A stretch of DNA of 64,000 nt from Balanoglossus misakiensis (taxonomy: Eukaryota; Animalia; Hemichordata): contig CM082586.2 of assembly GCA_040954595.2 (NCBI GenBank), positions 1-64,000 of the forward strand, read 5' to 3'. The translations under genes and the position numbers were made by a program. Within the stretch, counting starts at the first letter, position 1, and each line of letters starts with the position of its first letter. Below, one piece after another: positions 24,601-63,710 of the stretch. The notes under the pieces are model-generated. The model worked only from the letters and a program-made list of their open reading frames with translations, was not told the DNA's origin and made no database searches.

Positions 24601-27600
24601 GAGACTTCCGGTCGTAACGGCGCGGTGAATCCGGGCCAAGTTGCCGGCGACTTCCGGTGGTAACGGCGCGGTGAATCTGGGCCAAGTTGCCGTTGATTTC
24701 CTGTGGTAACGGCGCGGTGAATCTAGGCCAAGTTGATGGCGACTTCCTGTGAATCCGGGCCAATTTGCCGGCGACTTCCGGTGGTAATGGCGCGGTGAAA
24801 CTGAGCCAAGTTGCTGGCGACTTCCTGTCGTAACGGCGCGGTGAATCTGGGCAAAGTTGCCGGCGACTTCCGGTCGTAACGGCGCGGTGAATCCGGGCCA
24901 AGTTGCCGGAGACTTCCTGTGAATCCGGGCCAAGTTGCCAGCGACTTCCGGTGGTAACGGCGCGGTGAAACTGGGCCAAGTTGCCGGCGACTTCCTGTCG
25001 TAACGGCGCGGTGAATCTGGGCAAAGTTGCCGGCGACTTCCGGTCGTAACAGCGCGGTGAATCCGGGCCAAGTTGCCGGCGACTTCCGGTGGTAACGGCG
25101 CGGTGAATCTGGGCCAAGTTGCCGGAGACTTCCTGTGAATCCGGGCCAAGTTGCCAGCGACTTCCGGTGGTAACGGCGCGGTGAATCTGGGCCAAGTTGC
25201 CGGCGACTTCCTGTCGTAACGGCACGGTGAATCTGGGCCAAGTTGCGGCGACTTCAGGTCGTAACGGCGCGGTGAATCTAGGCCAAGTTGCCGGCGACTC
25301 CCTGTGGTAACGGCGCGGTGAATCCGGGCCAAGTTGCGGCGACTTCCGGTCGTAACGGCGCGGTGAATCCGGGCAAAGTTGCCGGCGACTTCCGGTCGTA
25401 ACGGCGCGGTGAATCCGGGCCAAGTTGATGGCGACTTCCTGTGAATCCGGGCCAAGTTGCCGGCGACTTCCTGTCGTAACGGCGCGGTGAATCTGGGCAA
25501 AGTTGCCGGCGACTTCCGGTCGTAACGGCGCGGTGAATCCGGGCCAAGTTGCCGGAGACTTCCTGTGAATCCGGGCCAAGTTGCCAGCGACTTCCGGTGG
25601 TAACGGCGCGGTGAAACTGGGCCAAGTTGCCGGCGACTTCCTGTCGTAACGGCGCGGTGAATCTGGGCAAATTTGCCGGAGACTTCCGGTCGTAACGGCG
25701 CGGTGAATCCGGGCCAAGTTGCCGGCGACTTCCGGTGGTAACGGCGCGATGAATCTGGGCCAAGTTGCCGTTGATTTCCTGTGGTAACGGCGCGGTGAAT
25801 CTGGGCCAAGTTGATGGCGACTTCCTGTGAATCCGGGCCAATTTGCCGGCGACTTCCGGTGGTAATGGCGCGGTGAAACTGAGCCAAGTTGCTGGCGACT
25901 TCCTGTCGTAACGGCGCGGTGAATCTGGGCAAAGTTGCCGGCGACTTCCGGTCGTAACGGCGCGGTGAATCCGGGCCAAGTTGCCGGAGACTTCCTGTGA
26001 ATCCGGGCCAAGTTGCCAGCGACTTCCGGTGGTAACGGAGCGGTGAAACTGGGCCAAGTTGCCGGCGACTTCCTGTCGTAACGGCGCGGTGAATCTGGGC
26101 AAAGTTGCCGGCGACTTCCGGTCGTAACAGCGCGGTGAATCCGGGCCAAGTTGCCGGCGACTTCCGGTGGTAACGGCGCGGTGAATCTGGGCCAAGTTGC
26201 CGGAGACTTCCTGTGAATCCGGGCCAAGTTGCCAGCGACTTCCGGTGGTAACGGCGCGGTGAATCTGGGCCAAGTTGCCGGCGACTTCCTGTCGTAACGG
26301 CACGGTGAATCTGGGCCAAGTTGCGGCGACTTCAGGTCGTAACGGCGCGGTGAATCTAGGCCAAGTTGCCGGCGACTCCCTGTGGTAACGGCGCGGTGAA
26401 TCCGGGCCAAGTTGCGGCGACTTCCGGTCGTAACGGCGCGGTGAATCCGGGCCAAGTTGCCGGCGACTTCCGGTGGTAACGGCGCGGTGAAACTGAGCCA
26501 AGTTGCCGGCGACTTCCTGTCGTAACGGCGCGGTGAATCTGGGCAAAGTTGCCGGCGACTTCCGGTCGTAACGGCGCGGTGAATCCGGGCCAAGTTGATG
26601 GCGACTTCCTGTGAATCCGGGCCAAGTTGCCGGCGACTTCCTGTCGTAACGGCGCGGTGAATCTGGGCCAAGTTGCCGTTGATTTCCTGTGGTAACGGCG
26701 CGGTGAATCTGGGCCAAGTTGATGGCGACTTCCTGTGAATCCGGGCCAAGTTGCCGGCGACTTCCGGTGGTAATGGCGCGGTGAAACTGAGCCAAGTTGC
26801 CGGCGACTTCCTGTCGTAACGGCGCGGTGAATCTGGGCAAAGTTGCCGGCGACTTCCGGTCGTAACGGCGCGGTGAATCCGGGCCAAGTTGATGGCGACT
26901 TCCTGTGAATCCGGGCCAAGTTGCCGGCGACTTCCTGTCGTAACGGCGCGGTGAATCTGGGCAAAGTTGCCGGCGACTTCCGGTCGTAACGGCGCGGTGA
27001 ATCCGGGCCAAGTTGCCGGAGACTTCCTGTGAATCCGGGCCAAGTTGCCAGCGACTTCCGGTGGTAACGGCGTGGTGAAACTGGGCCAAGTTGCCGGCGA
27101 CTTCCTGTCGTAACGGCGCGGTGAATCTGGGCAAAGTTGCCGGCGACTTCCGGTCGTAACGGCGCGGTGAATCCGGGCCAAGTTGCCGGCGACTTCCGGT
27201 GGTAACGGCGCGGTGAATCTGGGCCAAGTTGCCGTTGATTTCCTGTGGTAACGGCGCGGTGAATCTGGGCCAAGTTGATGGCGACTTCCTGTGAATCCGG
27301 GCCAAGTTTCCGGCGACTTCCGGTGGTAATGGCGCGGTGAAACTGAGCCAAGTTGCCGGCGACTTCCTGTCGTAACGGCGCGGTGAATCTGGGCAAAGTT
27401 GCCGGCGACTTCCGGTCGTAACGGCGCGGTGAATCCGGGCCAAGTTGATGGCGACTTCTTGAGAATCCGGGCCAAGTTGCCGGCGACTTCCTGTCGTAAC
27501 GGCGCGGTGAATCTGGGTAAAGTTGCCGGCGACTTCCGGTCGTAACGGCGCGGTGAATCCGGGCCAAGTTGCCGGAGACTTCCTGTGAATCCGGGCCAAG

Positions 27601-30195
27601 TTGCCAGCGACTTCCGGTGGTAACGGCGTGGTGAAACTGGGCCAAGTTGCCGGCGACTTCCTGTCGTAACGGCGCGGTGAATCTGGGCAAAGTTGCCGGC
27701 GACTTTCGGTCGTAACGGCGCGGTGAATCCGGGCCAAGTTGCCGGCGACTTCCGGTGGTAACGGCGCGGTGAATCTGGGCCAAGTTGCCGTTGATTTCCT
27801 GTGGTAACGGCGCGGTGAATCTGGGCCAAGTTAATGGCGACTTCCTGTGAATCCGGGCCAATTTGCCGACGACTTCCGGTGGTAATGGCGCGGTGAAACT
27901 GAGCCAAGTTTCCGGCGACTTCCTGTCGTAACGGCGCGGTGAATCTGGGCAAAGTTGCCGGCGACTTCCGGTCGTAACGGCGCGGTGAATCCGGGCCAAG
28001 TTGATGGCGACTTCCTGTGAATCCGGGCCAAGTTGCCGGCGACTTCCTGTCGTAACGGCGCGGTGAATCTGGGCAAAGTTGCCGGCGACTTCCGGTCGTA
28101 ACGGCGCGGTGAATCCGGGCCAAGTTGCCGGAGACTTCCTGTGAATCCGGGCCAAGTTGCAAGCGACTTCCGGTGGTAACGGCGCGGTGAAACTGGGCCA
28201 AGTTGCCGGCGACTTCCTGTCGTAACGGCGCGGTGAATCTGGGCAAAGTTGCCGGCGACTTCCGGTCGTAACGGCGCGGTGAATCCGGGCCAAGTTGCCG
28301 GCGACTTCCGGTGGTAACGGCGCGGTGAATCTGGGCCAAGTTGCCGGAGACTTCCTGTGAATCCGGGCCAAGTTGCCAGCGACTTCCGGTGGTAACGGCG
28401 CGGTGAATCTGGGCCAAGTTGCCGGCGACTTCCTGTCGTAACGGCGCGGTGAATCTGGGCCAAGTTGCTGGCGATTTCCTGTGGTAATGGCGCGGTGAAT
28501 CTGGGCCAAGTTGATGGCGACTTCCTGTGAATCCGGGCCAAGTTGCGGCGACTTCCGGTCGTAACGGCGCGGTGAATCTAGGCCAAGTTGCCGGCGACTT
28601 CCTGTGGTAACGGCGTGGTGAATCCGGGCCAAGTTGCGGCGACTTCCGGTCGTAACGGCGCGGTGAATCCAGGCCAAGTTGCCGGCGACTTCCGGTCGTA
28701 ACGGCGCGGTGAAACTGGGCCAAGTTGCCGTTGATTTCCTGTGGTAACGGCGCGGTGAATCTGGGCCAAGTTGATGGCGACTTCCTGTGAATCCGGGCCA
28801 AGTTGCCGGCGACTTCCGGTGGTAAAGGCGCGGTGAAACTGAGCCAAGTTGCCGGCGACTTCCTGTCGTAACGGCGCGGTGAATCTGGGCCAAGTTGCCG
28901 GCGACTTCCGGTCGTAACGGCGCGGTGAATCCGGGCCAAGTTGATGGCGACTTCCTGTGAATCCGGGCCAAGTTGCCGGCGACTTCCTGTCGTAACGGCG
29001 CGGTGAATCTGGGCCAAGTTGCCGTTGATTTCCTGTGGTAACGGCGCGGTGAATCTGGGCCAAGTTGATGGCGACTTCCTGTGAATCCGGGCCAAGTTGC
29101 CGGCGACTTCCGGTGGTAATGGCGCGGTGAAACTGAGCCAAGTTGCCGGCGACTTCCTGTCGTAATGGCGCGGTGAAACTAGGCCAAGTTGCCGGCGACT
29201 TCCGGTCGTAACGGCGCGGTGAATCCGGGCCAAGTTGATGGCGACTTCCTGTGAATCCGGGCCAAGTTGCGGCGACTTCCGGTCGTAACGGCGCGGTGAA
29301 TCTGGGCAAAGTTGCCGGCGACTTCCGGTCGTAACGGCGCGGTGAATCCGGGCCAAGTTGATGGCGACTTCCTGTGTATCCGGGCCAAGTTGCTGGCGAC
29401 TTCCGGTGGTAACGGCGCGGTGAAACTGGGCCAAGTTCCCGGCGACTTCCTGTCGTAACGGCGCGGTGAATCTGGGCAAAGTTGCCGGCGACTTCCGGTC
29501 GTAACGGCGCGGTGAATCCGGGCCAAGTTGCCGGCGACTTCCGGTGGTAACGGCGCGGTGAATCTGGGCCAAGTTGCCGGCGACTTCCTGTCGTAACGGC
29601 GCGGTGAATGTGGGCCAAGTTGCCGGCGATTTCCTGTCGTAACGGCGCGGTGAATCTGGGCAAAGTTGCCAGTGACTTCCGGTCGTAACGGCGCGGTGAA
29701 TCCGGGCCAAGTTGCCGGCGACTTCCGGTGGTAATGGCGAGGTGAATCTGGGCCAAGTTGATGGCGACTTCCTGTGAATCCGGGCCAAGTTGCCGGCGAC
29801 TTCCGGTGGTAACGGCACGGTGAAACTGGGCCAAGTTGCCGGCGACTTCCTGTCGTAACGGCGCGGTGAATCTGGGCAAAGTTGCCGGCGACTTCCGGTC
29901 GTAACGGCGCGGTGAATCCGGGCCAAGTTGCCGGCGACTTCCGGTCGTAACGGCGCGGTGAATCCGGGCCAAGTTGATGGCGACTTCCTGTGAATCCGGG
30001 CCAAGTTTCCGGCGACTTCCGGTGGTAACGGCGCGGTGAAACTGGGCCAAGTTGCCGGCGACTTCCTGTCGTAACGGCGCGGTGAATCTGGGCAAAGTTG
30101 CCGGTGACTTCCGGTCGTAACGGCGCGGTGAATCCGGGCCAAGTTGCCGGCGACTGCCGGTGGTAACGGCGCGGTGAATCTGGGCCAAGTTGATG
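9673..30195. repeat. ~20.5-kb CpG-rich 46/32-bp variant minisatellite array with higher-order duplications
   Basis: The 46-bp unit GCCAAGTTGCCGGCGACTTCC(G/T)GT(C/G)GTAACGGCGCGGTGAA(TCC/TCT/ACT)GG is interspersed with a 32-bp deletion variant GCCAAGTTGATGGCGACTTCCTGTGAATCCGG and with 44/45-bp variants. Confidence 0.97.
15797..17216 (-). repeat. Inverted segment of the 46/32-bp array; mostly a mirror copy of 14480-15757
   Basis: The units switch to reverse complement (ATTCACCGCGCC...GGAAGTCGCCGGCAACTTGGC) and the ORF track flips strand. The rare variant CAATGTTGCC (15611) is mirrored as GGCAACATTG (16076). Confidence 0.95.
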
Positions 30196-30450
30196 GGAGC
30201 AGACTGGAGGGGGACTGGAGCAGACTTGAGGGGGACTGGAGCAGACTGGAGGGGGACTGGAGCATGCTGGAGGGGGACTGGAGCAGACTGGAGGGGGACT
30301 GGAGCAGACTGGAGGGGGACTGGAGCAGACTGGAGGGGACTGGAGCAGACTGGAGGGGGACTGGAGCAGACTGGAGGGGGACTGGAGCAGACTGGAGGGG
30401 GACTGGAGCAGACTGGAGGGGGACTGGAGCAGACTGGAGGGGGACTGGAG
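30196..30450. repeat. 21-bp tandem repeat GGAGCAGACTGGAGGGGGACT, ~12 copies
   Basis: Directly visible; it terminates the 46/32-bp array. Confidence 0.95.
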
Positions 30451-31158
30451 TAACGGGGCAGGGTTGGGGTCAAGTGTCTGCGGCATGGTGGGGTGTAATG
30501 GGGCAGGGTTGGGGTCAAGTGTCTGCGGCAACGGCGGGGTGTAACTGGGCAGGGTTGAGGTCAAGTGTCTGAGGCAACGGCGGGAATGTAACGGGGCTGG
30601 GTTGGGGTCAAGTGTCTGCGGCAACGGCTCGGTGGAACAGGGTAGGTTTGGGGTCAAGTGTCTGCGGCAACGGCGCGGTGGAACGGGGCAGGGTTGGGGT
30701 AAAATGTCTGACACAACGGCGGGGTGTAACTGGGCAGGGTTGGGGTCAAGTGTCTGCGGCAACGGCGGGTTGGAACGGGGCAGGGTAGGGTCAAGTGTCT
30801 GCGCCAACGGCGGGGTGTAACGGGGCAGGGTTGGGGTCAAGTTTCTGAGGCAACGGCGGGATGTAACGGGGCAGGGTTGGGGTCAAGTGTCTGCGGCATG
30901 GCGGGGTGTAATGGGGCAGGGTTGGGGTCAAGTGTCTGCGGCATGGCGGGGTGTAATGGGGCAGGGTTGGGGTCAAGTGTCTGCGGCAACGGCGGGGTGT
31001 AACTGGGCAGGGTTGGGGTCAAGTGTCTGAGGCAACGGCGGGGTGTAACGGGGCAGGGTTGGGGTCAAGTGTCTGCGCCATGGCGGGGTGGAACGGGGCA
31101 GGGTTGGGGTCAAGTGTCTGCCGAAACGGCAGGGTGGAACGGGTCAGGGTTGGGGTCA
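30451..31158 (+). repeat. G-rich 45/46-bp tandem repeat (~15 copies) with canonical G-quadruplex motifs
   Basis: Unit GGGGCAGGGTTGGGGTCAAGTGTCTGCGGCAACGGCGGGGTGTAAC. Many unit junctions read GGGG-TGTAAC-GGGG-CA-GGG-TT-GGGG. Confidence 0.92.
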
Positions 31159-44800: not shown

Positions 44801-45003
44801 ATGGTATATTAGCATGCTGTTTGGAATAGAAAAAAGAAAATGTATTTGGTACACAGAACAAAAACTCTGAATGTAAAGGCATAATTACAATAACCTGGCC
44901 GTGTTTAGCCATGAAAAATTAATTAAAGAGACAAACTAATATTGATTTTCGCTTCCTCCCCTGCATCACTTTATAGTTGGGAACCAACGATTGAGTAGCA
45001 ACC

Positions 45004-46599
45004 ATGGCAACCAAACACGGGGAAGATTTTACATGCTCTCGCCTTGAAGAGTGTGATGGCTCTGTGAGCAGTAATAATAGGATACACCCAGGTGAAAACG
45101 TGGAAGAAACTAACGTCAGTGGGACGACCATCGCGAGTGAAAATCAGACAATTCAAGCAAACGCATGCGCAACAGATATGGAATCGACACCAACGGAGCA
45201 CCCAACAGCGAACGGGGCATGTGCAACAGGTGACAAACCTACACCAGCAGACTTGTATAAAGTACTTGAAGGCTTACTGGCTCTTGACGATTCTGTTCGG
45301 AAAAAATCACCTCAAAAGAAAAGTCGACCAAAAAGCGCGGGTGAATATCTTATCGGTTCAGATATAGAAAGCAGTGATGCCGTTGTAGCTGATGAGAGTC
45401 TAGAACGTGACACAAACGCGAAGGACGGTCAAACTGTCCGTTTTCACGATAAAACGAAAACACCTGAAGAGAAAACCGCCCTCCGCAGATACATGTCCAG
45501 TGATGAGAGCAAGAAAAACAAGAAATTTCAGAAAAGAACATCATGGTTTGGGAATAGCAGATCGCTGTCTCGAACACAAAGCGCGTACACGTTCCAAGAA
45601 GGTGACGTGAGTTACCATGATCCACACGACCTCAATAAATTTTCTTGGAGTGGCGAAAATCTCGCTTACCGAAAACCTTCGAGCACGTCGATGCCTAATC
45701 TTTCATCCATGATGGCGAATAATAACTCGTACGAACCTGAATTGGTGTGGAAATTTAACAACACCGCTTCATCGAGATATGAGTTACGCAATCCCCGTGG
45801 TTTGACTGTGTCTTCCAAAGGTACAGTTTTTGTCTGTGACCCTGGCAACCGTAAACTTCAGGCTTTCAGTTTCACCAACAACTTCACATGGAAATTTCCA
45901 GCAGACAGCGGAGACTCAGATCGCAGAGACAACAAGAAGAAGCAACATTTCGACCCGCGAGATGTTACACTGTCACGTGACGAACGCAACGTACTCGTCA
46001 CAGACTTTGGTAGTGAGTCCGTTTTTGAAATTTGTGTGTCCACGAGTGATGTTACCGGACAGTACCATTCTCTGCACCTGCGTGGACCTTGGGGAATTGC
46101 CCAAAACAGAGAACTTCTTGTTTTTGTTGCGTGCAATAAATCTCACTGCATTGTAGTGTTAAAAGAAGGGAAGGTTGTCAGAGTTATGGGCAAACAGGGG
46201 AGTGCCCCGGGTCAATTTAAATGCCCAACTTTCCTCGCAATAGATAGTCGTGACAACCTCTTTGTGGCGGACTCTCGAAATTTCAGAGTTCAGATTCTAA
46301 ACGCCGAGGGCGCCTTCCTGGACTGCATCCAAGACAAGCAAAAATTTCCATCGATGACTGGGATTGCGATCGACAACACCAACAATCTGTTTGTCGCCGA
46401 CGACAAGCTCGGTTACATCTGGGTGTATGATGTAGAAGGGAAACTGAAAGCCCGCATCAAGCGTTGTCACGGAGACAAGAAGTTCTCCAAGCCCCAAGGG
46501 ATTTCGTCTACACCAGAAGGCAGAATTGTAATTGTCGACAAAATGCACATCCGGGTATTAAATTGCTGGCACCTCGTTCCGTTAAAAGATGGTCAGTAA
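45004..46599 (+). CDS. NHL-repeat beta-propeller protein (TRIM2/3/71-like NHL domain, no RING or B-box), 531 aa, single coding exon
   Basis: ATG is in ACCATGG context, with a splice acceptor (pyrimidine tract + TATAG, ~44976) just upstream. C-terminal NHL repeats: LRNPRGLTVSSKGTVFVCDPGNRKLQAF, FDPRDVTL..VLVTDFG, LRGPWGIA, GKQGSAPGQFKCPTFLAIDSRDNLFVADSRNFRVQIL, FSKPQGIS. The N-terminal ~240 aa are polar and low in complexity. Confidence 0.9.
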   Translation: MATKHGEDFTCSRLEECDGSVSSNNRIHPGENVEETNVSGTTIASENQTIQANACATDMESTPTEHPTANGACATGDKPTPADLYKVLEGLLALDDSVRKKSPQKKSRPKSAGEYLIGSDIESSDAVVADESLERDTNAKDGQTVRFHDKTKTPEEKTALRRYMSSDESKKNKKFQKRTSWFGNSRSLSRTQSAYTFQEGDVSYHDPHDLNKFSWSGENLAYRKPSSTSMPNLSSMMANNNSYEPELVWKFNNTASSRYELRNPRGLTVSSKGTVFVCDPGNRKLQAFSFTNNFTWKFPADSGDSDRRDNKKKQHFDPRDVTLSRDERNVLVTDFGSESVFEICVSTSDVTGQYHSLHLRGPWGIAQNRELLVFVACNKSHCIVVLKEGKVVRVMGKQGSAPGQFKCPTFLAIDSRDNLFVADSRNFRVQILNAEGAFLDCIQDKQKFPSMTGIAIDNTNNLFVADDKLGYIWVYDVEGKLKARIKRCHGDKKFSKPQGISSTPEGRIVIVDKMHIRVLNCWHLVPLKDGQ

Positions 46600-47492: not shown

Positions 47493-48713
47493 CTAGCAGT
47501 TTTTACCAATCCACGAAAAATTTTGCTTGAGAAGATTAGATAGAGCGTGATCGAAAGGCCTGTAAAACTCACACAATCTTTGCAGTGCCCAGTCAGCAAC
47601 CACTGGGTGAGTTCTTCCCTTGGCGGATGGCATACAAAACCTCTTTGGATAAGACACACAATAATTGTGTTTAATCTCGTCATAGTAAAAATGCTCCTTC
47701 CGATAATAATGCCGAACCCCAAGAAATTTCTCTAATTTATACATCTCCTCTGGTGGGTTCTTTCTAAAATTATCCCCGTCCATAAAATGTATTTGTTGTC
47801 GAGGGAAGTATTCTAACCAATGAAACAGGTGCTTTACATAAATACCAACGTCCACGATTTCGCTGTAGATGTTGACATTTTTCGTCACGTTACTCTCAAA
47901 CACAGTTTCCTCTACTGTAGAGGCCATGTTCTTCTTTTGCATATAGTCACGATCAGTTTTGTTGATAAACTCGAGATAGTCCGAGATGAGACGGCGTACG
48001 GGATCACAAACCATCACGATAATTTTGGTGCTTGGCGAAAGAGTGTCATGAATCCGTTTTGGACAATCAATTGGCCGAAAGAAGTAGGTTGGAGTTTTCT
48101 CAATAGTCATTTGGTAACGTGAGGACAGAGGCATTTGCGACGCGTACCATTCTAAACCGGGCTCTTTTTCAGAATCGAAATAGTGCGTTTCATCTCTCGG
48201 AGAGACAAACTGAGGATGAACGTTAAGTAACTTCGACACTGTCCCTGTACCACACTTACGGACACCCGTTATGATTGCTTGTGGCAACCGTCTCTCGCAA
48301 CCCAAGCTCTCTTGATCGTCCTCGTTCACGGCAAATTTCAGACAGTACGCACACCGTGCAAGGTAATAACAAGAATGCTTGATATGCTCTTCCACATATT
48401 TCTCATAATTTAGACTAGCTTGCCAGATATCCGCCTCGTCTCCATCTTCATTCTTCGACCCCAACTTAGTTTGCCAATAATCCCGCACTGCTGGCTTCTC
48501 TGCCATAAGCTGTCGCGTCATCTCGCCCCCTCCAGGCCTCTGCAGATATCTCACGAGAAGTAAAGAAGACAAAAAAATGATACCATACACATATGCAGCC
48601 ATTCGAATATTTCGCCGTGGCAGAACCAAACGAGGAATTTCTTCCGTCATCTTCCAAACTAGAGCCAACTTATTCCAAATGGCGACGTAAACGGGGTGTG
48701 CGCCTCCTGACAT
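47493..48713 (-). CDS. Heparan sulfate glucosamine 3-O-sulfotransferase-like protein (HS3ST1/5 family), paralog A, 406 aa, type II membrane
   Basis: Signal-anchor AAYVYGIIFLSSLLLV. Family motifs: RRLPQAIITGVRKCGT (5'-PSB), ETHYFD, GLEWYASQMP, IEKTPTYF, DPVRRLISDY (3'-PB), FYYD..KHNYC, KGRTHP. Uninterrupted ORF ending in TAG. Confidence 0.93.
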   Translation of the reverse strand: MSGGAHPVYVAIWNKLALVWKMTEEIPRLVLPRRNIRMAAYVYGIIFLSSLLLVRYLQRPGGGEMTRQLMAEKPAVRDYWQTKLGSKNEDGDEADIWQASLNYEKYVEEHIKHSCYYLARCAYCLKFAVNEDDQESLGCERRLPQAIITGVRKCGTGTVSKLLNVHPQFVSPRDETHYFDSEKEPGLEWYASQMPLSSRYQMTIEKTPTYFFRPIDCPKRIHDTLSPSTKIIVMVCDPVRRLISDYLEFINKTDRDYMQKKNMASTVEETVFESNVTKNVNIYSEIVDVGIYVKHLFHWLEYFPRQQIHFMDGDNFRKNPPEEMYKLEKFLGVRHYYRKEHFYYDEIKHNYCVSYPKRFCMPSAKGRTHPVVADWALQRLCEFYRPFDHALSNLLKQNFSWIGKNC

Positions 48714-51700
48714 GTTTTATTAGCGAAAACTATACACTGAATACGTTGTGTACGTCGTCATAATTTACTCTCTGCTCAATTAGTATGCGTGGCAAATTTT
48801 GATCTTTTTCCATGGCTACGTGCCAATGATATTATCGATAATCTGATTTACACAGTTAGTCCTCCATATGGCTAATATATTGTACAAAGAGGGGTATAAG
48901 CCAATCTCTATTGAAGGAGTATTTGATACGCAACAGCTTGAGGAGAATGAAAAAGAGTTAAAATGGAAAGTAAACAAAACACGTCTGTCGGTATGTTGAT
49001 GGATATAAAAAGCTGACCCATCCTTTTTGAGAATCGACCGAGAATTAAACTGAAACCGGAGTGCTGACAACAGGCTGAATTGAAATCTTATAAACGCGGG
49101 TTTTGATTGGGGGTTAGGCTGCGCCAGTCACCCCCTATTAACGTGGTTTTTTTGTGGAACAGGTTCGAACAAAAATAATAAATATGCGAATTTTACGATC
49201 AAGCAACAGGCAGATATTACTGAGGACATGTTGACAAGTTGGGCCTTTGTCATTTTTATGTCTGCGTTCATGAAACTAATTTATGTTCATCAGATCATAC
49301 ATTTTATGCAACGGTAACAATGCACGACACGAGCGGTGAAATATCCCGCTTCATTTTACAACATGTCAATAACACCCGGTGTTATCATTACCAATCATGA
49401 AACAAACATTGCTTTCTCATCAGCCATTAACGTTTGGACAGTGTGCAACTTGTGTATTTTCATTGGTTGAGAGTGGCCCTGCAAAATGCGTAGCTTCACC
49501 AGGTGGTTTCACTGATGTGTGTGCGCCACGTCAGTCGTGCCACCACTTCGTGTCGGATGACGACCGCGTACTCGTTACCTTCAACATGCTTGGGGAGGAT
49601 AACAAGCTTTGCTGGTCGTTCAGGGATTTTGGAGAACTGTCGGAAAATTTGCAGTACTCTACCATGTCGACGTTCGACCCTTCAAGCAACAAGTGAGTAT
49701 ACACCACTCGTTTATGTTGCTCATATGTGGTGTGGTTCAATAACTTTTCAAAACAGTTCAATACTCATCAGAACAAGACGGAATCAGGACTATCTTGTTC
49801 TGAGGGAAATTAAATAGTGAGCATGCCCTGTTATAAATTCGTCTTTGTATCTCCTTTTTGACATTTTTCTTTTCTTGCGGAGGGTTTATGAAGAGTTGCC
49901 TCGATCTTTAAATTTGCTGGTTCTTTGCTGAAATGTTCTCTCAGTGCAGTGGACATCCGAGAAGGGACCAGCAAAGAACCAACAAATGTAAAACTCGAGC
50001 CAACTTTTGGTCTGATTTTAATCAGATTGGCCAGGGTAATACCAACCTGATGCCACCGAAAATACTACCACGGCGCCAGTAGCGCCAGCCAAGTGGTATG
50101 ACGTCAATGTCCCCGTAGAATTATATATATCAAAGCGCCCTCACACCCATGCAGTTGTTTGTGCATACCGCGAATCACGCACGCACGCACCGGTTAAGCG
50201 GTTGGGTTGAACAAAACGGCCATGTGCGTGCATTTCTGGACTAGTTTTACCCGTTGTTATGCGGTTACAGGTATATTGTCACCAATGCAAATTTAACCAA
50301 TGATACCATGGAAAATTCAAATACATGTACATGTTGTGTGTATAGCAATCAAAGATTTTCAGTGGGTGGCACAATAGGGGGGAAAATGCGCCACCACATG
50401 GCAATGCATTCTTCCTATCTTCGAAGTGAAGGACCGAGCATTAAAATCTTAATGCTATTTTGGTCTCACTACCAACTGCTTCAAAAGAGCCTCTATCTCA
50501 GTAATATTCAGAATAGTTGTAAACGGAAATCGCCTCCGTCTGGTGCCAGTAGCGAATGAAAAGAATGTATACGTTTTTTGTAAATATTAAAATTGTGTCA
50601 ATAACACCGCTGCTGTATAGTGTATATCTACAACAGTGTGAGCATGACGCGTGTTCAGACGTTAGCTATAGCCATTTATGGCTCGATGAGATCCTACAAT
50701 AAAATGTATTCGCTTGATTGGAATTTGCTGCGTCAAAGCTGCACAGGCCAGGAAGCCAAAATACTATAAACTGCCTATTACAGGATATTGTATGGCCACA
50801 GCTGTTTATTCCTTTCAAATGTAAAATAGGTGTTATTTTAGAATAGGATCGCCGCTCATTGATATTCAAGGGGATTTGCTCTCTTTGAGCTCTGTAAAGC
50901 CCATCCGGAGCACTGCTTACGAAACCCCTCAACTGTACGTTGGTGCTAAATGAAAACAATATTCTAATTGATAAACCGACGGTTTTGCGCAACATTGTAA
51001 CACTAATATAAATATGGGAATACTGGTTACACTTCAAGTGGTGACGGTCCGAACCCGATCCGGATCGAAGCTGCTTATAGTTGCTTAGCAACAGGTGACA
51101 TTCAGAATGTGAGCGATGACACTCCAGTATTTTTCCGTGTTTGCTGGCAGTTTGAACGTTGAAGAATGCATGTATATTCGTGGGTGATTTGTGAACTCTT
51201 TGAAAGGACAGTACGATTGTCCGCATTTTAATTATACAGTAAATACCAGTTTTTAATTTTTATTTAAGTTCAAGGTGCTGTATTACTGTATCAAACGTTA
51301 TTGAATTTTACGGAAAATATGAAGACCCAATAAATAAAATCAGTGGTCTAGAATTAAAATGTATTCTAAAAGACTTGAGAATTGATTACCCCGTAACGAG
51401 GAGTCCAGATTATAATGTTGCTGAAAGCGCCATTGTCATCAGTAACATCTGTGTCGAGTGATTAATGGTGATCAGAAATCGGTAATGTAAAATGTTCGGA
51501 TCTAGATAAGTATGGGCGACGGGGCAATTTTTGTGCTTTTAAATTTCAACAGTTTAAATTTCACAGGACCTACACCAAAAATAATTTTGCAAAGGTATGT
51601 TCATTACTCGTTGATTCAACTAAATTTGGACTTACTCGGCTATATAAAACCACAACATGACACTTTTAAAAGTCATTATGTAGTTTTAATACGTGTAACA

Positions 51701-52868: not shown

Positions 52869-54104
52869 TCAACAATTCTTTCCAACCCAAGTGAAGTTCT
52901 GTTTGAGTACATTAGACAGGGCGTAATCGTAAGGTCTATAGAACTCACACAGGCGTTGCTTTGCCCAATCAGCCAGTTCAGGATGCTCACGACCTTTCGC
53001 TTTTGGCATGCAGGTGATTTTTGGAAAAGAGACACAGTAGTGGCCTTTCGTGCTGTCGTAGTAGAAATGCTCCTCCCTGAAAAAGCCCCTGACGCCTAGA
53101 AATTTTTCCACTTTCTGTAATTCAGCAGATGGATTAACGCGAAAATTCTCTCCATCGACAAAATGGATTTGATCTTTCGAAAAGTACTCTAGCCACCTGA
53201 AAAGATATTTGACATAGAGGCCCACGTCGACCATTTCGTTGTACATGTTGACGTTGGTAGGCCTCGCCTTCTCGAAAACTGTGTCTTCAATTGTTTCGCC
53301 TAGAGTTTTCCTTTGCATGAAATCGTGATCTTGGGCTTCAGTGGTTTTGTTAATAAATTCTACGTAGTCCGAAACTAACCTTCGTACTGGTTCACACACG
53401 ATCACAAGAATCCGGACATTCGGCGAAAGTGTGTCGCGAATTCGCTTCGGTGCATCGAATGGTCTGAAGAAATATGTTGGCGTTTTTTCGACGGTGATTT
53501 GGTATTTTGACGAGTAGGGCATTTGAGATTTGTACCATTCTAGTCCGCGTTCGTTCAGAGAATCAAAGTAGTGCGTTTCATCTTTGGGTCCAACCAGCTG
53601 AGGATGAAAGTTCAGAAATTTCAGAAGAGTCCCAGTTCCACATTTACGGACACCAGCGATGACAACCTGTGGTAGGCGTTTTTCGCATCCTCGCCGCTTC
53701 AACTCGTCCACTTTCAGTAATCGCTTGAGACGATAGACTGGATGGATAGGGTAGTAGCACGACGTTCTCCATCTTTCCACCATAAACCGCTTGGCATCAT
53801 AGCTGACGTCCCAAGTCGCATAGTCGTCGGACACCCCGTTTACGTACGCAGAATCGTTTAGGAGACTTTTCAACGATGATCTGTCGGCGAGCAGTTTTCT
53901 CGTCGTTTCCCCTTCTCTCGGCGCTTCTAACACTCTAAGACAAAGTAATGAGCAAACAAAGATTGCCACATACAGCGCTGTCCACGGTGATAATTTGAAT
54001 CCCTTCCTTGGCAAAACACGGTGTAGTTTTTCTTCCACCATCGCAAACCAGTCTCCTAATTTGCTCACGATTATGGCGCGGGTTGGCAAAGGCCGTTTAT
54101 CCAT
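52869..54104 (-). CDS. Heparan sulfate glucosamine 3-O-sulfotransferase-like protein, paralog B, 411 aa
   Basis: Signal-anchor WTALYVAIFVCSLLCL. Family motifs: KRLPQVVIAGVRKCGT, ETHYFD, GLEWYKSQMP, VEKTPTYF, EPVRRLVSDY, KGHYC, KGREHP. Collinear with paralog A and ends in TGA. Confidence 0.93.
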   Translation of the reverse strand: MDKRPLPTRAIIVSKLGDWFAMVEEKLHRVLPRKGFKLSPWTALYVAIFVCSLLCLRVLEAPREGETTRKLLADRSSLKSLLNDSAYVNGVSDDYATWDVSYDAKRFMVERWRTSCYYPIHPVYRLKRLLKVDELKRRGCEKRLPQVVIAGVRKCGTGTLLKFLNFHPQLVGPKDETHYFDSLNERGLEWYKSQMPYSSKYQITVEKTPTYFFRPFDAPKRIRDTLSPNVRILVIVCEPVRRLVSDYVEFINKTTEAQDHDFMQRKTLGETIEDTVFEKARPTNVNMYNEMVDVGLYVKYLFRWLEYFSKDQIHFVDGENFRVNPSAELQKVEKFLGVRGFFREEHFYYDSTKGHYCVSFPKITCMPKAKGREHPELADWAKQRLCEFYRPYDYALSNVLKQNFTWVGKNC

Positions 54105-55491
54105 CGTCTATGAGGTATATTTGTGGAAAGAACCACTGATTTGTGGCTGGGCGAGACCTCAGTAACAGCTGGCCCCTTTTCTGTGCATTATCAATATTCT
54201 TTAACACAGAAGGCTTGAATAGCTGATCGTTTCACCTAAGTGATTTGTGTTGGCCTGAACATGTGGTATACACATCAATAGAATGGTAACGCATTATGCA
54301 AATGATTCTTTATAAGTATTTTGCGGCAGTTTGCAAAACGTGTCACTGTACCAGAACCGTGATATTAAAATTATTGTATTATTTATTTATTTAATAGAGG
54401 CTTTTATGATATAATGACTGACAAGCTAGAACCAAATCTGCCAGGATCATCTCTGGATATCCAGCATTTAAGTCTTTGTACAATTTGAAAATTTGTCGAA
54501 ACGTATGTACTTGCTGTCAAATTGAAAATCTGGTCGAAAAAATTCTGAACGATAATCAAATGTGACAAAGATGAGCCTGAGACATTTCAATATACCGGGG
54601 AGCGTTTCTAATGGTAAGCGCCGAGTGCTATCACTCCTCCCGTGATAAATACATGGAACCTTTCTCCACTTGGTGATAAATACGGGGAATGCCTAACAAT
54701 ATAATCCTGAGTTCAAAAAGGTATGCTTTCCGGTTTAGGAGGACGAACTGAGATAATCCCGATGTTCACGTCGAGTATTTTCCGATTTAGGCCGACGAAC
54801 TGTTTTAAAGACAGTTTTATCTTTCAATAACATTTAATACCGCATATGCACTTGCCTTTTCACGTTCATTTTGGCTTACGTACAGAAGTAATTGTTTAAC
54901 AAAATTAAAATAATTATTGTAATTATTGTAAACATTTACTTATACCAAACATGCCGGAATTAAATCTGTACATGTTTGCATAAGTCAATGTTCGTTGCAG
55001 CCTACAAATATCTTATTCGTTTACAAAAGACAGCATCAGGCTGACACCGTAATATTTGCATAAGAATAGCATATAACAATGAACAACGCATACGTACTTG
55101 CAGGGTGAATGGCAACATGACGTACTGACACTGAATCATACCATGTGATATGTTGAGAGACCATTGAAGAAAAAAATGACATAAAGTTGATTTCATTCCC
55201 CGACGTTCAAGCAGAATAACCCCATTAATTTGATTTGATTTGATCAATCGATCATTGATTCGATTGATTTGATTTAAATTGATTTTGAGAAAGTCGCGAC
55301 AACAAGAAATCCTCCATCTTGAAATCGCAATTTTTTGCATCCGGAAGTTGCAGAGTGCAATTTCTGGAAGTAATATAAGACCATCGAGATCCACGGATCA
55401 TTCAATCAGTTTTCATAATTATGTATACGGCAGATTCCATTACCTTCTCCTTTGTGCTTTATGGGCCCAGCAAATCTGAGCGGCGGCTTCC

Positions 55492-58145: not shown

Positions 58146-58237
58146 ATGACCGTTGGACGATCAAGGGCTCTGCGCATGCCTCGGTTTCAAATCACATTTT
58201 TGTTCATATGTGCTGTAGCAGCAAAGAGTGCAGGGGT
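58146..58237 (+). CDS. First coding exon, signal peptide (MTVGRSRALRMPRFQITFLFICAVAAKSAG)
   Basis: Acceptor TTTTCACTCCCACAG at 58094, in-frame ATGs at 58146 and 58176, a hydrophobic core, and GTAAGT donor at 58238. Phase 2 joins correctly to exon 58631. Confidence 0.72.
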
Positions 58238-61200
58238 GTAAGTAAAGTAACGGCCTTCTACTGAATCTGACAAGTCATCATGGATGACGCAGTCTCCTTA
58301 TACTGAATCTAACAATCACGAACACAATAATGCTTTCATTTAAAACCATTCGAGATCCCTTAGTGCAAATAGTAGTGGAGTTTTTTCGGTTCTATGCATG
58401 AGTACATATATGAACAAATTATAACCAATCCCAAACCAAGGGCTTTTTCACTGAAAATCACTGAGAAATGTAACTATACTATTCAATATAATTTAAAATA
58501 TAAGAAGACAATAAGTCAACACTTGGAAATACCGCCCGTGTCTGTATGTAAACCAATCAGTTATTACTGACCAATTTAATGTGAAATGTACAAAACTCTC
58601 ACTTTCCCACTTTTTTCTTCCTACGTCTAGAAAGTACGATGAACTGGAAGATGATTTACACTCTTTGATATCTCAAGACAAAGAAATCCATGGTAAGACG
58701 TTTTTAAATTTCGCCAAATACGCACTGGTGTCCGTCGCATACCCAGTTTTTGTCCATAGAAATAGCTGTAAAAGATCACCATCGTCAAGTGACGCAATGT
58801 ATGATGTATGATGCAAGTAAGATCGCAATTTTTTTTTAGTTCAGTTTTTTTTTCTTAGTTCAGTTGACAATTAAATGATTTAAACTATTTTTCATACTAG
58901 AAAACAATTTTTGGAAGCGGAACAGTTTCATCCTTCCACGAATCGGAGTCCGTGAGTTAATCTTATAAATCATTTCATTTTATTTTATTTATAAATAAGA
59001 TGGAAATTGTTAATTTTTAATTTTTAAAGTTACAGTTTGATCGGAGTTAAATAAATTTACATTTGAAACACACCTTAAGAAAACTGTTTAAATGAAAACA
59101 AAGCTTAGACGTAAAGCTTTTCTTTTTCGTCCTCCAGCAAGTGAAGGAAACACTGGGCACTGTAACACATGGGGGAAGTACGCTTTGCACTACCGGACTT
59201 TCGATGGTAAAAAGTTCAGTTTCCATGGCGTTTGCACCTACACCTTAGTTTCTGAATGTTCCAGTGGAAGCTTCGAAATTTTTGTCTCCAATGATCCAAA
59301 TTGCTCTCCAAGTTCTGTTTGTCAACGTTCTATCTCCGTCACTATCGGCGAACCAAGCAAAGAATTAGTTCTTCGGAACGAGAGCGGTGAAGCTGCAGTG
59401 TTTCTCGGTGGTGATCGCATCGGCATTCCCGCCGATACCCAGGGTTACCTGGTCGAGCAAGTGAGAGACTACATTTTCGTTGAGAACGGCGGGCTTGGAT
59501 TTCGAATCACGTGGGATGGAGCTGATTCTTTTAGTATAGAGCTGACCAATTCGGATCTGCAAGGCCGCACGTGCGGTCTGTGTGGTACATGGAACAATAA
59601 CATCAACGACGAGTTCACCATTGCTAACGGCCAAGTCGTGCAAGACTTGGAGGAATTTGCAGAGAGTTGGCAAGACCATGGATCATCGGAAGGTAAGCGT
59701 TTGATTCATCCATAACATTTGTTAATTTTAAAAATTGGTCGTAAAAGCATTTTAGATGTTATTTAAACTCATGATTCTGTAATTTTTTCGTAGGAAACCG
59801 ACTCACGAAACGGAAAAGCTTTATTCTTCCACGAATTGGACAACGTAAGTAAACCTGCAGTCTTTATTTTTCTTCAACAATCATCGCTGATAATATCTTT
59901 ACACATATGTAAAATTATGGAAATTTAGAAACATTAAATTTTAGGCTTTGGTGATTCACGGTGTTCTAGAACATTGGGTAGTCAAATAAGAGACCACGTG
60001 ATCGTTCCCAGCGACAAAAATGAAGTTACTGAAACCCTTCTTCAATAACTGGAAATTTGCCAAGAGATTACACAAATAAGTTTTGACTTGGTGTCTCCTC
60101 CTGGATTTATCTGTGTTGTCATAAAATGGCAAGTTTCTACAACATGTCAATTCACTGAACTATCGTTCTCCCAACAGAATTCAAAAAGCAAATAGTCGTC
60201 GCTGTACAACCCAGTGACCACCAAATATATCATATTGTGAAATATGTGCTAAAATAGCCTGATTGTTATTCGTCCGAAATGACGTTTCTTAGGGATGTTT
60301 TTTTCTTTCCTGACATTTATGACGCAGCTCAATGTGATGGCCCTCCACGTGACCTGCAATCCTGTAAACTGAGTTCTCGAAACATTGAACCTGACCCTGA
60401 TGACACGGAGGAAGAGGCCAGAGCCAAGATGGCAGTCAATACATGCAACGCCCTGGATTCAGAGCCATTCGCATCCTGTCACGATGTAAGTAAATTATTC
60501 ATTCGCTCGAATGGCCAATCGATAGATCGATGGATCAACATATCCATCCATCCCTGAACCAGCAAGCCGTCCATATATCTATCCGTCCATTAACTGATCA
60601 CTCTAGCCATGAATCCGTCGATCGTCCAATTAGTCAGATAGTCCATTAACCTATTAATCAACCAACCAGTCAATTAATAAACGAATCTGTAATCAATGGA
60701 ATGAAAGAAATTTAGTTTGATCAAGTAGTTTAGCTTGTTATCAAGGGTGCGATGCATAGCGGATAGTCCACTAGTCTAAACCGAGTAAGGTTGTTTTCAT
60801 CATTTTTTGTCCGGTAGATCGTGGAAGTAAAGGCCTACAAAACAGCCTGCAATGAAGACATGTGTTCATGCAGCCAGGAAAATCTGGAGGAATGCAAGTG
60901 TGCTGCACTTGCTGCCTATGCACGAGAATGCGCGCGCATGGGCTCACCCGTCGACTGGAGAAGCGAAAACCTTTGTCGTGCGTATGCTCTATGTTCCACT
61001 CATTCCCTGGGCATGCGTGTTATTTGTTCGAACTTTTTTGGCATTTGCGCCAAAATGTCTGTGTTAAAGGCTGAAATAATCAGCCCAATGCTACAACTGT
61101 ACTGAAATGCAACCGCTACGGATTAAGTCATCAAATCAAACCTTTTCATGTGGCATTATCTCAGTCAATTCATTTGTCCCACATGTCCTCCCTTTACTTC

Positions 61201-63710
61201 ACAGCCGTCATTTGTCCAAGTGGAATGGAGTTCACGGAATGTGAAGCGTCGTGTCCCCAGAGTTGTCAATCAAAAGGCGAAGGAAATTGTGACGTAGAAG
61301 AATGCATCGACGGTTGCCGCTGTCCATCCGGCACGTACCTATATCAAGGCCAGTGTGTCCAGGCTTCACAGTGTCCGTGTTACTTCAATGGAGTGGAATA
61401 CCCAGCCCAATCAATACTTGAACAGGACTGCAATCATTGGTACGTTTATTTTCAATAGACCATTTTCCGAACTTTAGGAGACCAAGAGATCTCGCACTTT
61501 TATGCGACACAGAACAAACAACGCTTAGCCAATCGTGGAAAATTGTCAACAAATGTTCAGGTTTATCTAGAAATGTTCGAATTGAGAACTGTTAGATTTG
61601 CATGGCAAAGGGTCGTTTCCTAAAGTGAGCTAATAGTTAGCCAATCCTATAGCTGTCAATTAGTTTCAAGCAAAATAAAAAATATTCAAATCTTAGTTCA
61701 GATCAGGACCGATAGAAATATAATTCAAACTTTATGTGGTTTGTCTGTTTGTTTTTCATTCAGTGAATGTATTGATGGCAGTTGGAGTCGATGTACAAAC
61801 GATATCTGTGAAGGTATGTTAATGAACCCATTTAAACAAGACCCTTCTTTCTTGTTGGCAAAAGTGTTCACAACAACCACTGTGGGTGTATGCTGTCTAT
61901 ATTTTCATTTAAGGCTACAACAATGCGATTTTCGCGTCACCTCTCGTATGGCTTATGTATAAGTGCAAGGGTAAACAAGCACGCAACTCCCTAGTTCGGT
62001 TGAAGAATGTAAGGGGCGAGATTTATCGACAGGATTCGTAATTGTTTTGACATAATTAACTACATGTTTTCAAGCTCAATTTGGGTAATGCTACAAATAC
62101 AGGCTACGTTGTTGTTTTTTCCAGGAACCACTGTGTTGCAACTATTGTAATTTTAATGTGTCGCCCACGTGAACGATTCCGATAATAATATAATCCGGTA
62201 CCATGGAAACTTAATTATGGCTATTTTATTCACAGCGCACTGTCGCGTTTACGGAGACCCTCATTACTCGACATTTGATGGAACGAACTATGACTTTATG
62301 GGCGACTGTACTTACGTTTTGTTGAAGAATTGTTTCAGCGAAAACGGCAATTATCATATTTTGGGCAAAAATGTCGAATGTGGACGGTCTGACGGTCTGA
62401 CGTGTACAAGAGCTGTCATCATTGAAATCGGCCACACCCTTGTCTACTTAAAACGTGGGGGCGCTGTTAACGTGAATGGAGACGACGTTGACAAATTTCC
62501 TTTCACGGAAGAAAGCGTTTATATCGAAAGAGTATCGACCATATTTGTCAAGGTAACTGATTTAACGATGTGTCACATCATTTAATATAAAACGCTGGCA
62601 TTGAGAATATTGATGTGTATTTTATTAAAATTCGCACCAAGTGGACTGGCCGTGAAATCAAATGTATATCCTGTGAAATGCTGTTTAAGATTATGATAAT
62701 AGCACATTCATTTAGGCCGAGAATACTACATTTACATAAACTTTTCACTATTCAAACAGGTCGAACTTAACAACGGAGTAAAGGTATTATGGGATGGTCG
62801 AAGTCGCGTGTTCATCAGGGTTAGTCCCGATCACTTCAACAAAACGTGCGGTTTGTGCGGTACTTTCAACAACAACCAGCTCGATGACTTCCAAACCATG
62901 CAAGGTGCGTATAGACAGACACAAAGACGGGCAGGCAGGCAGGCAAACAGACAACCTTTTTTTTATCTTAACTGATAAAAAATATCTGGAGCAAACTACA
63001 ATGACAGTGACGACAGATATGGCCGCAGGTGGCTTTTGAAATATTTTACCACAACTTTTCTCATTCTGTGTTGTCAGTTCTGGATGTCTTGTTACTGTTT
63101 CAGAGTGACAATATACAGGTAAAAACTTTAAGAGAAAGTTTTGACTCTCCTTTCCTCTGACTCTAGGCGACGTCGAGACAAGCGTTGAAGCGTTTGCCAA
63201 CAAATACAAGACTAATCCAGGGTGTAAAGACGTGCCAATTGAAGAAGTACCTCATCCCTGTGACGTGTACTCCCAGCATGCCTCTACAGCCGAACGACTG
63301 TGCAGTCACCTGCTGAATGAAGATATCTTCAGAGGTATTGACCAGAACAAATTAGATATTTGCATAAGGAGGCTGGAATAGAAAGTCCGGCCTCTTCTGT
63401 ATTTTAACAAGAGTCTGTACATTTTCCAGCCGGTCTTACAAGAGATAAATAACACGAATGTTGTGAGTGAAGGGGCACTATATCATAACTTAAGGATAAA
63501 TGAAAAACAAACCTTATCTTTCAATCACTTTCCCAGAATGCCACAGTGTTATAGATCCACAGTCCTACTACGACAATTGTATGTTTGATGTCTGCGCATG
63601 CGAACAGCGAGCCTGTCACTGCATCTCCTTGTCAGCCTACGCGCATGACTGTGCCAACAAAGGAGTTCCTTTGAATGGATGGCGACAGCTGGAATCCCTT
63701 CCCGAATGTG
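58146..63710 (+). CDS. Secreted VWF/gel-forming mucin/SCO-spondin/otogelin-type protein, 5' part (signal peptide, VWD-C8-TIL-E, VWD-C8); continues beyond the window
   Basis: Phase-consistent GT-AG exons: 58146-58237, 58631-58692, 58901-58951, 59138-59692, 59794-59844, 60328-60485, 60818-60977, 61205-61439, 61764-61813, 62236-62552, 62760-62904, 63167-63334, 63537-63710. Motifs: CNTWG..HYRTFDG, TCGLCG (twice), C8 domains, a TIL domain, CRVYGDPHYSTFDG. Confidence 0.92.
58901..58951 (+). CDS. 51-nt phase-1 microexon A: (E)NNFWKRNSFILPRIGV(P)
   Basis: TTTTTCATACTAG acceptor and GTGAGT donor; open in the frame linking exons 58631 and 59138. Confidence 0.8.
59138..59692 (+). CDS. VWD domain 1 exon
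   Basis: CNTWGKYALHYRTFDGKKFSFHGVCTYTLV...RITWDG...GRTCGLCGTWNNNINDEF; CCTCCAG acceptor and GTAAGC donor. Confidence 0.93.
59794..59844 (+). CDS. 51-nt phase-1 microexon B: (G)NRLTKRKSFILPRIGQ(P)
   Basis: TTTTTTCGTAG acceptor and GTAAGT donor; same length and phase as microexon A, with the same peptide motif. Confidence 0.82.
60328..61813 (+). CDS. C8, TIL and E/VWC-like exons of D assembly 1 (4 exons)
   Basis: PFASCHD|IVEVKAYKTACNEDMCSC...CAALAAYARECAR..WRSENLC|PVICPSGMEFTECEASCPQSC...CIDGCRCPSG...DCNHC|ECIDGSWSRCT. Confidence 0.92.
62236..63710 (+). CDS. VWD2 (GDPH, CGLCG) and C8 exons of D assembly 2 (4 exons)
   Basis: HCRVYGDPHYSTFDG...|VELNNGVKVLWDGRSRVFIRVSPDHFNKTCGLCGTFN|GDVETSVEAFANKYK...|ECHSVIDPQSYYDNCMFDVCAC. 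Confidence 0.93.

Follow-up and report, generated by a model that had tools for sequence, protein, structure and literature searches.

Two 51-nt exons of a gene predicted to encode a secreted protein of the VWF/mucin type in the hemichordate Balanoglossus misakiensis each carry a Lys-Arg (KR) site followed by a conserved peptide that appears to be under selection. Sequence comparison suggests that the first copy is ancestral across echinoderms and hemichordates and that the second arose by a later duplication. The analyzed window comprised 64,000 nt (contig CM082586.2, positions 1 to 64,000). The exons are located at 58901..58951 and 59794..59844 on the plus strand, are bounded by AG and GT, and have phase 1-1. 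A preliminary description of this DNA had reported their coordinates, length, splice sites, phase, translations and codon tally, and all of these were confirmed. The two exons are identical at 34 of 51 nt, and the 11 motif codons differ by five synonymous changes and one non-synonymous change. A merged degenerate pattern of the two copies matched the 64-kb window only twice, at the two exons themselves, and gave no match in 100 shuffles.

The two exons were placed into a hand-built model of 13 exons, which extends from 58146 to 63710 and is open for 739 codons. Its features are as follows, with the basis of each assignment in brackets.

58146..58237, plus strand: exon 1, start codon and likely signal peptide (by eye), second Met 10 codons on (sequence, open model)
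58631..58692, plus strand: exon 2, acidic pro-segment, kept in the Ptychodera flava protein P0001 (alignment)
58901..58951, plus strand: exon 3, 51 nt, phase 1-1, KR and peptide, putative ancestral copy (copy 1), 18 residues before the first VWD1 cysteine (sequence, model)
59138..59692, plus strand: exon 4, VWD1 (PF00094), lacking only the closing cysteine (Pfam, alignment)
59794..59844, plus strand: exon 5, 51 nt, phase 1-1, KR and peptide, putative duplicate (copy 2), between the end of the VWD1 sheet and the closing cysteine (sequence, model)
60328..60977, plus strand: exons 6-7, VWD1 closing cysteine (model residue 273) and C8-1 (Pfam, model)
61205..61813, plus strand: exons 8-9, TIL1 and the next small cysteine-rich module (Pfam, model)
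62236..63710, plus strand: exons 10-13, VWD2 and C8-2; the gene continues past the window end (Pfam, model)

The likely signal peptide rests on a hydrophobic stretch in exon 1, which was read by eye. It is separated from VWD1 by about 45 residues. The reading frame of the model stays open when either, both or neither of the 51-nt exons is removed. The symmetric phase had previously been noted as compatible with alternative splicing, but it says little about this because phase 1-1 is common in this gene (5 of 12 non-first exons), and 9 of the 13 introns have phase 1. The introns around the two exons yielded a gappy, AT-rich local alignment, which was left out of the evidence. VWD2 (62236-62552) carries a GDPH motif at model residue 478, a motif that is an autocatalytic cleavage site in some mucins, and VWD1 does not contain it.

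Pfam assigned the domain order VWD, C8, TIL, VWD, C8, and a tandem VWD-C8-TIL assembly of this kind at the N-terminus is a feature of VWF and the gel-forming mucins. The closest protein was XP_070535312 from P. flava (P0001), with 70% identity over 663 columns, followed by XP_077869402 from Saccoglossus kowalevskii (P0038) with 51% identity. In D1-D2 trees (quick trees with midpoint root), the window gene grouped with P0001 (support 100) and then with two Saccoglossus proteins (100), within an echinoderm-hemichordate clade of 11 rows (support 99) that is apart from vertebrate MUC2/MUC5 and SCO-spondin. The crinoid row P0057 was absent from the first of these trees, in which the clade had 10 rows and agreed, and was included in the second without its inserted domain. 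MUC2, MUC5AC and MUC5B of vertebrates formed a separate clade with support 100, to which the window gene did not belong. The SCO-spondin-like rows were another group, and the window gene, with only about 45 residues from the signal peptide to VWD1, does not show the extra N-terminal module that precedes VWD1 in SCO-spondin. The relatives have D'D3, Thr/Pro-rich stretches, and CysD or F5/8 domains; the Saccoglossus ortholog model P0153 contains D'D3 and a Thr/Pro-rich stretch. These domains are in line with the invertebrate gel-forming mucins and hemolectin-type VWD proteins, which likewise have repeated VWD-C8-TIL units, and the window gene clusters with proteins of invertebrates and lamprey and not with MUC2/5. 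In contrast to what is predicted for the window gene, these proteins showed no processed or repeated N-terminal peptide in the part of the source that was available (PMC4948705). A search of metagenome contigs with the back-translated motif gave 22 loci, none similar to the gene model, and the first 63 residues of P0038 had no usable match in the ESM Atlas.

Copy 1 was not restricted to the window gene. In 7 of the 11 rows of the clade with support 99, a basic site is followed by a seven-residue motif ending in Arg, directly upstream of VWD1:

NSFILPR, copy 1 of the window
RSFLIIR, P0001 (Ile in place of Pro)
GAHIIPR, P0038
AAPLIPR, P0231
AAQPIPR, crinoid P0057
AAMPIPR, echinoids P0043 and P0238

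The motif was absent in the other four rows; it is degenerate in P0173 and P0040, and P0025 and P0055 differ. As to the basic site, the echinoids show Arg-x-x-Arg, and a KR that lacks Arg at P4 is present in the window, P0001, P0038 and the crinoid. The first residue after it varies (N, K, R, G or A), and Pro-Arg occupies positions 6-7 of the predicted exposed N-terminus. When the motif was written as a pattern (Arg, three residues, two hydrophobic or Pro residues, Pro or Ile, Arg), 7 matches were found outside the clade among 340 proteins, versus 0-6 in 20 shuffles of the whole set. Because the pattern was drawn from the same clade sequences and the outside matches are near the shuffle range, the argument rests on the common position of the motif. 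In the older Saccoglossus annotation P0153, precisely the copy-1 segment is missing and the frame is preserved, which would be expected if a symmetric exon had been missed or skipped. The preliminary description had named the lack of the motif in orthologs as an outcome that would speak against it, and the seven rows show the opposite. It had overlooked, however, that copy 1 appears to be an old feature shared by echinoderms and hemichordates, and also the separate second copy that Saccoglossus carries in another loop (see below). At the copy-1 place of P0055 from Strongylocentrotus purpuratus (residues ~49-62), we noticed a dibasic site and a peptide ending in Phe-Pro-Arg, followed by Gly-Lys-Arg, which might represent an amidated peptide released from the pro-region of a mucin.

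The codon changes between the two exons of the window support the earlier proposal that the peptide is under selection. For the motif codons, pS was 0.60 and pN was 0.04 (binomial P 0.005, with the 11-codon window chosen after the fact), whereas the five flanking codons had a pS of 0.72 and a pN of 0.65. Over all 16 exon codons, the excess of silent changes was weaker (P 0.06). In neutral simulations with the same 16 nucleotide changes, only 11 of 20,000 runs gave any 11-codon window with at least 10 identical residues. Recent gene conversion between the copies was rejected on account of the 5 silent differences in 11 codons. Both between the window copies and between species, the KR and the residues that follow it are kept and the preceding residues drift, which is the pattern expected if the new N-terminus, and not just the cut site, is selected.

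Copy 2 is much more restricted in its distribution. Among 583 VWD ends, the insert of the window was unique as a long insert with a dibasic site and Pro-Arg, and the P. flava model P0001 does not contain it. The residues before the KR in the single copy of P0001 match copy 2 of the window and not copy 1, indicating that the flank of copy 1 changed after the duplication. From these comparisons, copy 2 appears to be the later duplicate. An insertion at the same junction was also seen in P0057 from Antedon mediterranea, in which a Methyltransf_FA domain (residues 258-389) lies just after the VWD1 closing cysteine, beside the place of copy 2, and thus the VWD1-end junction accepts insertions.

Saccoglossus P0038 has no insert at the end of VWD1, and instead repeats its own motif, with 9 identical residues, in a loop of C8-1. 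Two separate annotations include this copy, and at the corresponding place the paralog P0173 contains a diverged one. C8 loops of at least 23 residues occurred in 3 of 208 cases, and all three were from Saccoglossus. The two copies within one protein resemble each other more than the first copies do between species. The simplest account of the sequences would be two independent duplications into different D1 loops; one ancestor with both inserts, followed by two losses, is also conceivable.

The natural reading of the two sites is that cleavage at the predicted KR sites would produce two similar new N-termini, as had been proposed. KR in an exposed flexible segment is a feature of PC1/PC2-type dibasic substrates, and both window copies have KR and the homologous segments of P0038 are of low confidence in the structure model. 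The furin consensus includes Arg at P4, and this position is Phe and Leu in the window copies, whereas the echinoid relatives have Arg-x-x-Arg. The AlphaFold model of P0038 (48 sequences) had a mean pLDDT of 84.5 with confident domains, and its fold matched the heads of VWF, MUC5AC, MUC5B and MUC2. Residues 25-57 had a pLDDT below 50 and the C8-1 loop averaged 53-69, so that both copies are mostly unstructured in the model. Each copy, once cut, would thus give a free N-terminus on a short tether.

The further proposal that cleavage would nick out VWD1 was not supported. In VWF D3, C889 pairs with C1031 and C1071 pairs with C1111, according to the available part of the source (PMC10196764). In the alignment to VWF, C889 corresponds to model residue 101 and C1031 to residue 273, the first cysteine after the VWD end and downstream of copy 2 (hand count). 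Copy 2 thus lies between the equivalents of two cysteines that, by homology, pair inside the domain, and after a cut at the second KR, VWD1 would remain attached to the remainder of the chain. By the same homology argument, the Saccoglossus insert would lie in a loop that is spanned by a C8 disulfide. Both internal copies would accordingly be situated in disulfide-closed surface loops, and cut pieces would stay linked.

We propose, at a little less than an even chance, that each chain is cut by a convertase in secretory granules and thereby gains two tethered N-terminal peptides, which dock on neighboring mucin chains. If exon 5 is included in the mRNA, a convertase specific for dibasic sites would cut at the KR of both modules, the exposed peptides would dock during granule packing or gel formation, and a chain with the duplicated module would have two docking ends instead of one. 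The proposal draws on the human MUC5AC filament, in which the segment upstream of VWD1 joins the beta-sheet of VWD3 in another chain and is visible from P67, and in which paired filaments touch at C8-1 (PMC11912381, available part). The distance from P67 to the first VWD1 cysteine is 14 residues. In the window, P0001 and P0038, the corresponding distance for the beginning of the motif's hydrophobic core is 13-16 residues. It is 21-33 residues in the remaining four rows (echinoderms and P0231), which makes the positional match to MUC5AC loose. Because vertebrate MUC2/MUC5 belong to another clade, the MUC5AC strand is an analogy only. Furin is not mentioned in the filament paper (PMC11912381), and thus nothing there says that the strand needs a cut. 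Points against docking are that P0001 does not have copy 2, that its copy 1 has Ile for Pro, and that four of the 11 clade rows do not have the motif.

The same conservation and duplication would also be found if the exposed peptides were tethered ligands for a non-mucin partner (for example a receptor on the cell surface, a lectin or a protease), with the two copies raising avidity. A mobile partner would more readily account for copies at three different D1 places, and the closer match of copies within a protein than between species points in the same direction. Yet the sole structural precedent that we found for the segment is a contact between mucins, and we regard this explanation as unlikely but worth keeping in mind. 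The motif itself could, with a rather small probability, be a second protease site, at which a trypsin-like enzyme cuts after Pro-Arg. Cuts at KR and Pro-Arg would then release a seven-residue activation peptide and leave a new end, and cleavage at the copies would be timed so as to loosen or mature the mucin. The best-kept positions are indeed the hydrophobic pair, Pro and Arg, which fits a thrombin-like subsite preference, and of the 5 copies in the window, P0001 and P0038, 4 have Ile-Gly after the Arg. However, the Ser-Phe before the hydrophobic pair is kept too, between the window copies and in P. flava, a fixed spacing from the KR is not needed for a protease site, and P0231 has Pro after the Arg, which blocks trypsin-like cleavage.

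Release of a free signaling or antimicrobial peptide, with the mucin as the precursor of a PRXamide or an unamidated variant, seems quite improbable to us. The likely signal peptide, acidic spacer and KR of the gene model do resemble a prohormone layout, and the best support is the complete amidation cassette at the copy-1 place of sea-urchin P0055, but this is 1 of 11 clade rows. In PRXamide and neuromedin U-type precursors, the peptide is closed by Gly and basic residues for amidation. Gly with a basic residue followed the motif in none of 9 copies, and the Arg is followed by different residues (I, M, L, R, P). The PRXamide-like release that the preliminary description had considered is therefore not supported by these 9 copies. 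They also have no closing second dibasic site, except Arg-Arg-Pro in two echinoids, and an aliphatic residue after a single Arg disfavors convertase cleavage. Finally, copy 1 could simply mark the usual boundary of a propeptide, with copy 2 being a duplicate that is tolerated or skipped and has no function of its own. The exon is frame-neutral, P0001 lacks copy 2, and the silent excess over all 16 codons is not strong. This explanation is nevertheless very improbable, as so few neutral simulations match the conservation, the splice sites are intact, and Saccoglossus also keeps a second copy.

The window gene's family shares the D1-D2 architecture and fold with human MUC5AC (PDB 9GVJ/9GVQ; PMC11912381, available part). 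The MUC5AC-like row that was examined differs in having no dibasic site before the segment and no internal repeat, and the sequence likeness of the strand is weak. VWF shares the D1-D2-D'-D3 head, the conserved cysteine pattern and convertase processing, which is predicted for the window protein. The VWF furin site lies between D2 and D', and a cut there removes the whole propeptide, whereas the window sites flank VWD1 and are dibasic without a P4 Arg. The furin site is an insertion elsewhere in the head, as given in the available part of the source (PMC7599080). The window peptides have no homology to fibrinogen knobs or PAR ligands, the protease class is different, and their first residue is unconserved. 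In both of these systems, cleavage frees an N-terminal peptide that stays tethered and binds afterwards, and the exposed N-terminus of a fibrin-type knob begins with residues that do not vary. The variable first residue makes the window peptides unlike such a strict knob. In the literature searched, from which subscription papers were mostly missing, we found no description of a conserved N-terminal peptide that is processed and has been copied twice into internal loops in this clade. Scaffold and dibasic processing are already known, and the twice-copied conserved peptide in internal loops is apparently new.

The contacts between D1, D2 and D3 in mucin and VWF heads have been solved only in vertebrates. 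That a conserved peptide, probably exposed by cleavage, was twice copied into one and the same assembly identifies it as a small functional element. Should the peptide cross-link chains, it would add a new means of controlling mucus gel formation and would clearly illustrate convergent valency gain by micro-duplication; if it is released, a peptide precursor would be hidden in a mucin. A broader version, which we consider doubtful, is that echinoderm-hemichordate mucins are protease-armed polymers, that a convertase uncovers their N-terminal docking peptide, that two acorn-worm lineages independently doubled the docking valency via copies in disulfide-closed D1 loops, and that this provides a fibrin-like cleavage-triggered cross-linking so far not described for the VWF/mucin family. 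Gene models drop such exons, as copy 1 is missing from one of the two Saccoglossus annotations.

Several further features were observed in the window and in the relatives. A telomeric hexamer array of about 252 copies occupies positions 1-1510, so that the window begins at the end of a chromosome; from there it is about 58 kb to the mucin-like gene. Subtelomeric GC-rich satellites with periods of 70, 52 and 46/78/124 follow at 1507-30162, with an inverted block at about 15800-17200. An open frame of 3994 codons in the satellite (18485-30469, minus strand) was rejected as an artefact, since the strand has only 12 stop triplets in any frame. A single-frame gene with NHL repeats is located at 44995-46599 (plus strand), and two tandem single-frame sulfotransferase genes (PF00685) at 47493-48716 and 52869-54107 (both minus strand) lie close upstream of the mucin-like gene. 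In all five vertebrate MUC5-type rows examined (P0070, P0077, P0084, P0094 and P0129), two hydrophobic residues followed by Pro-Pro begin 22 residues before the first VWD1 cysteine, a segment that lies upstream of the part visible in the MUC5AC map.
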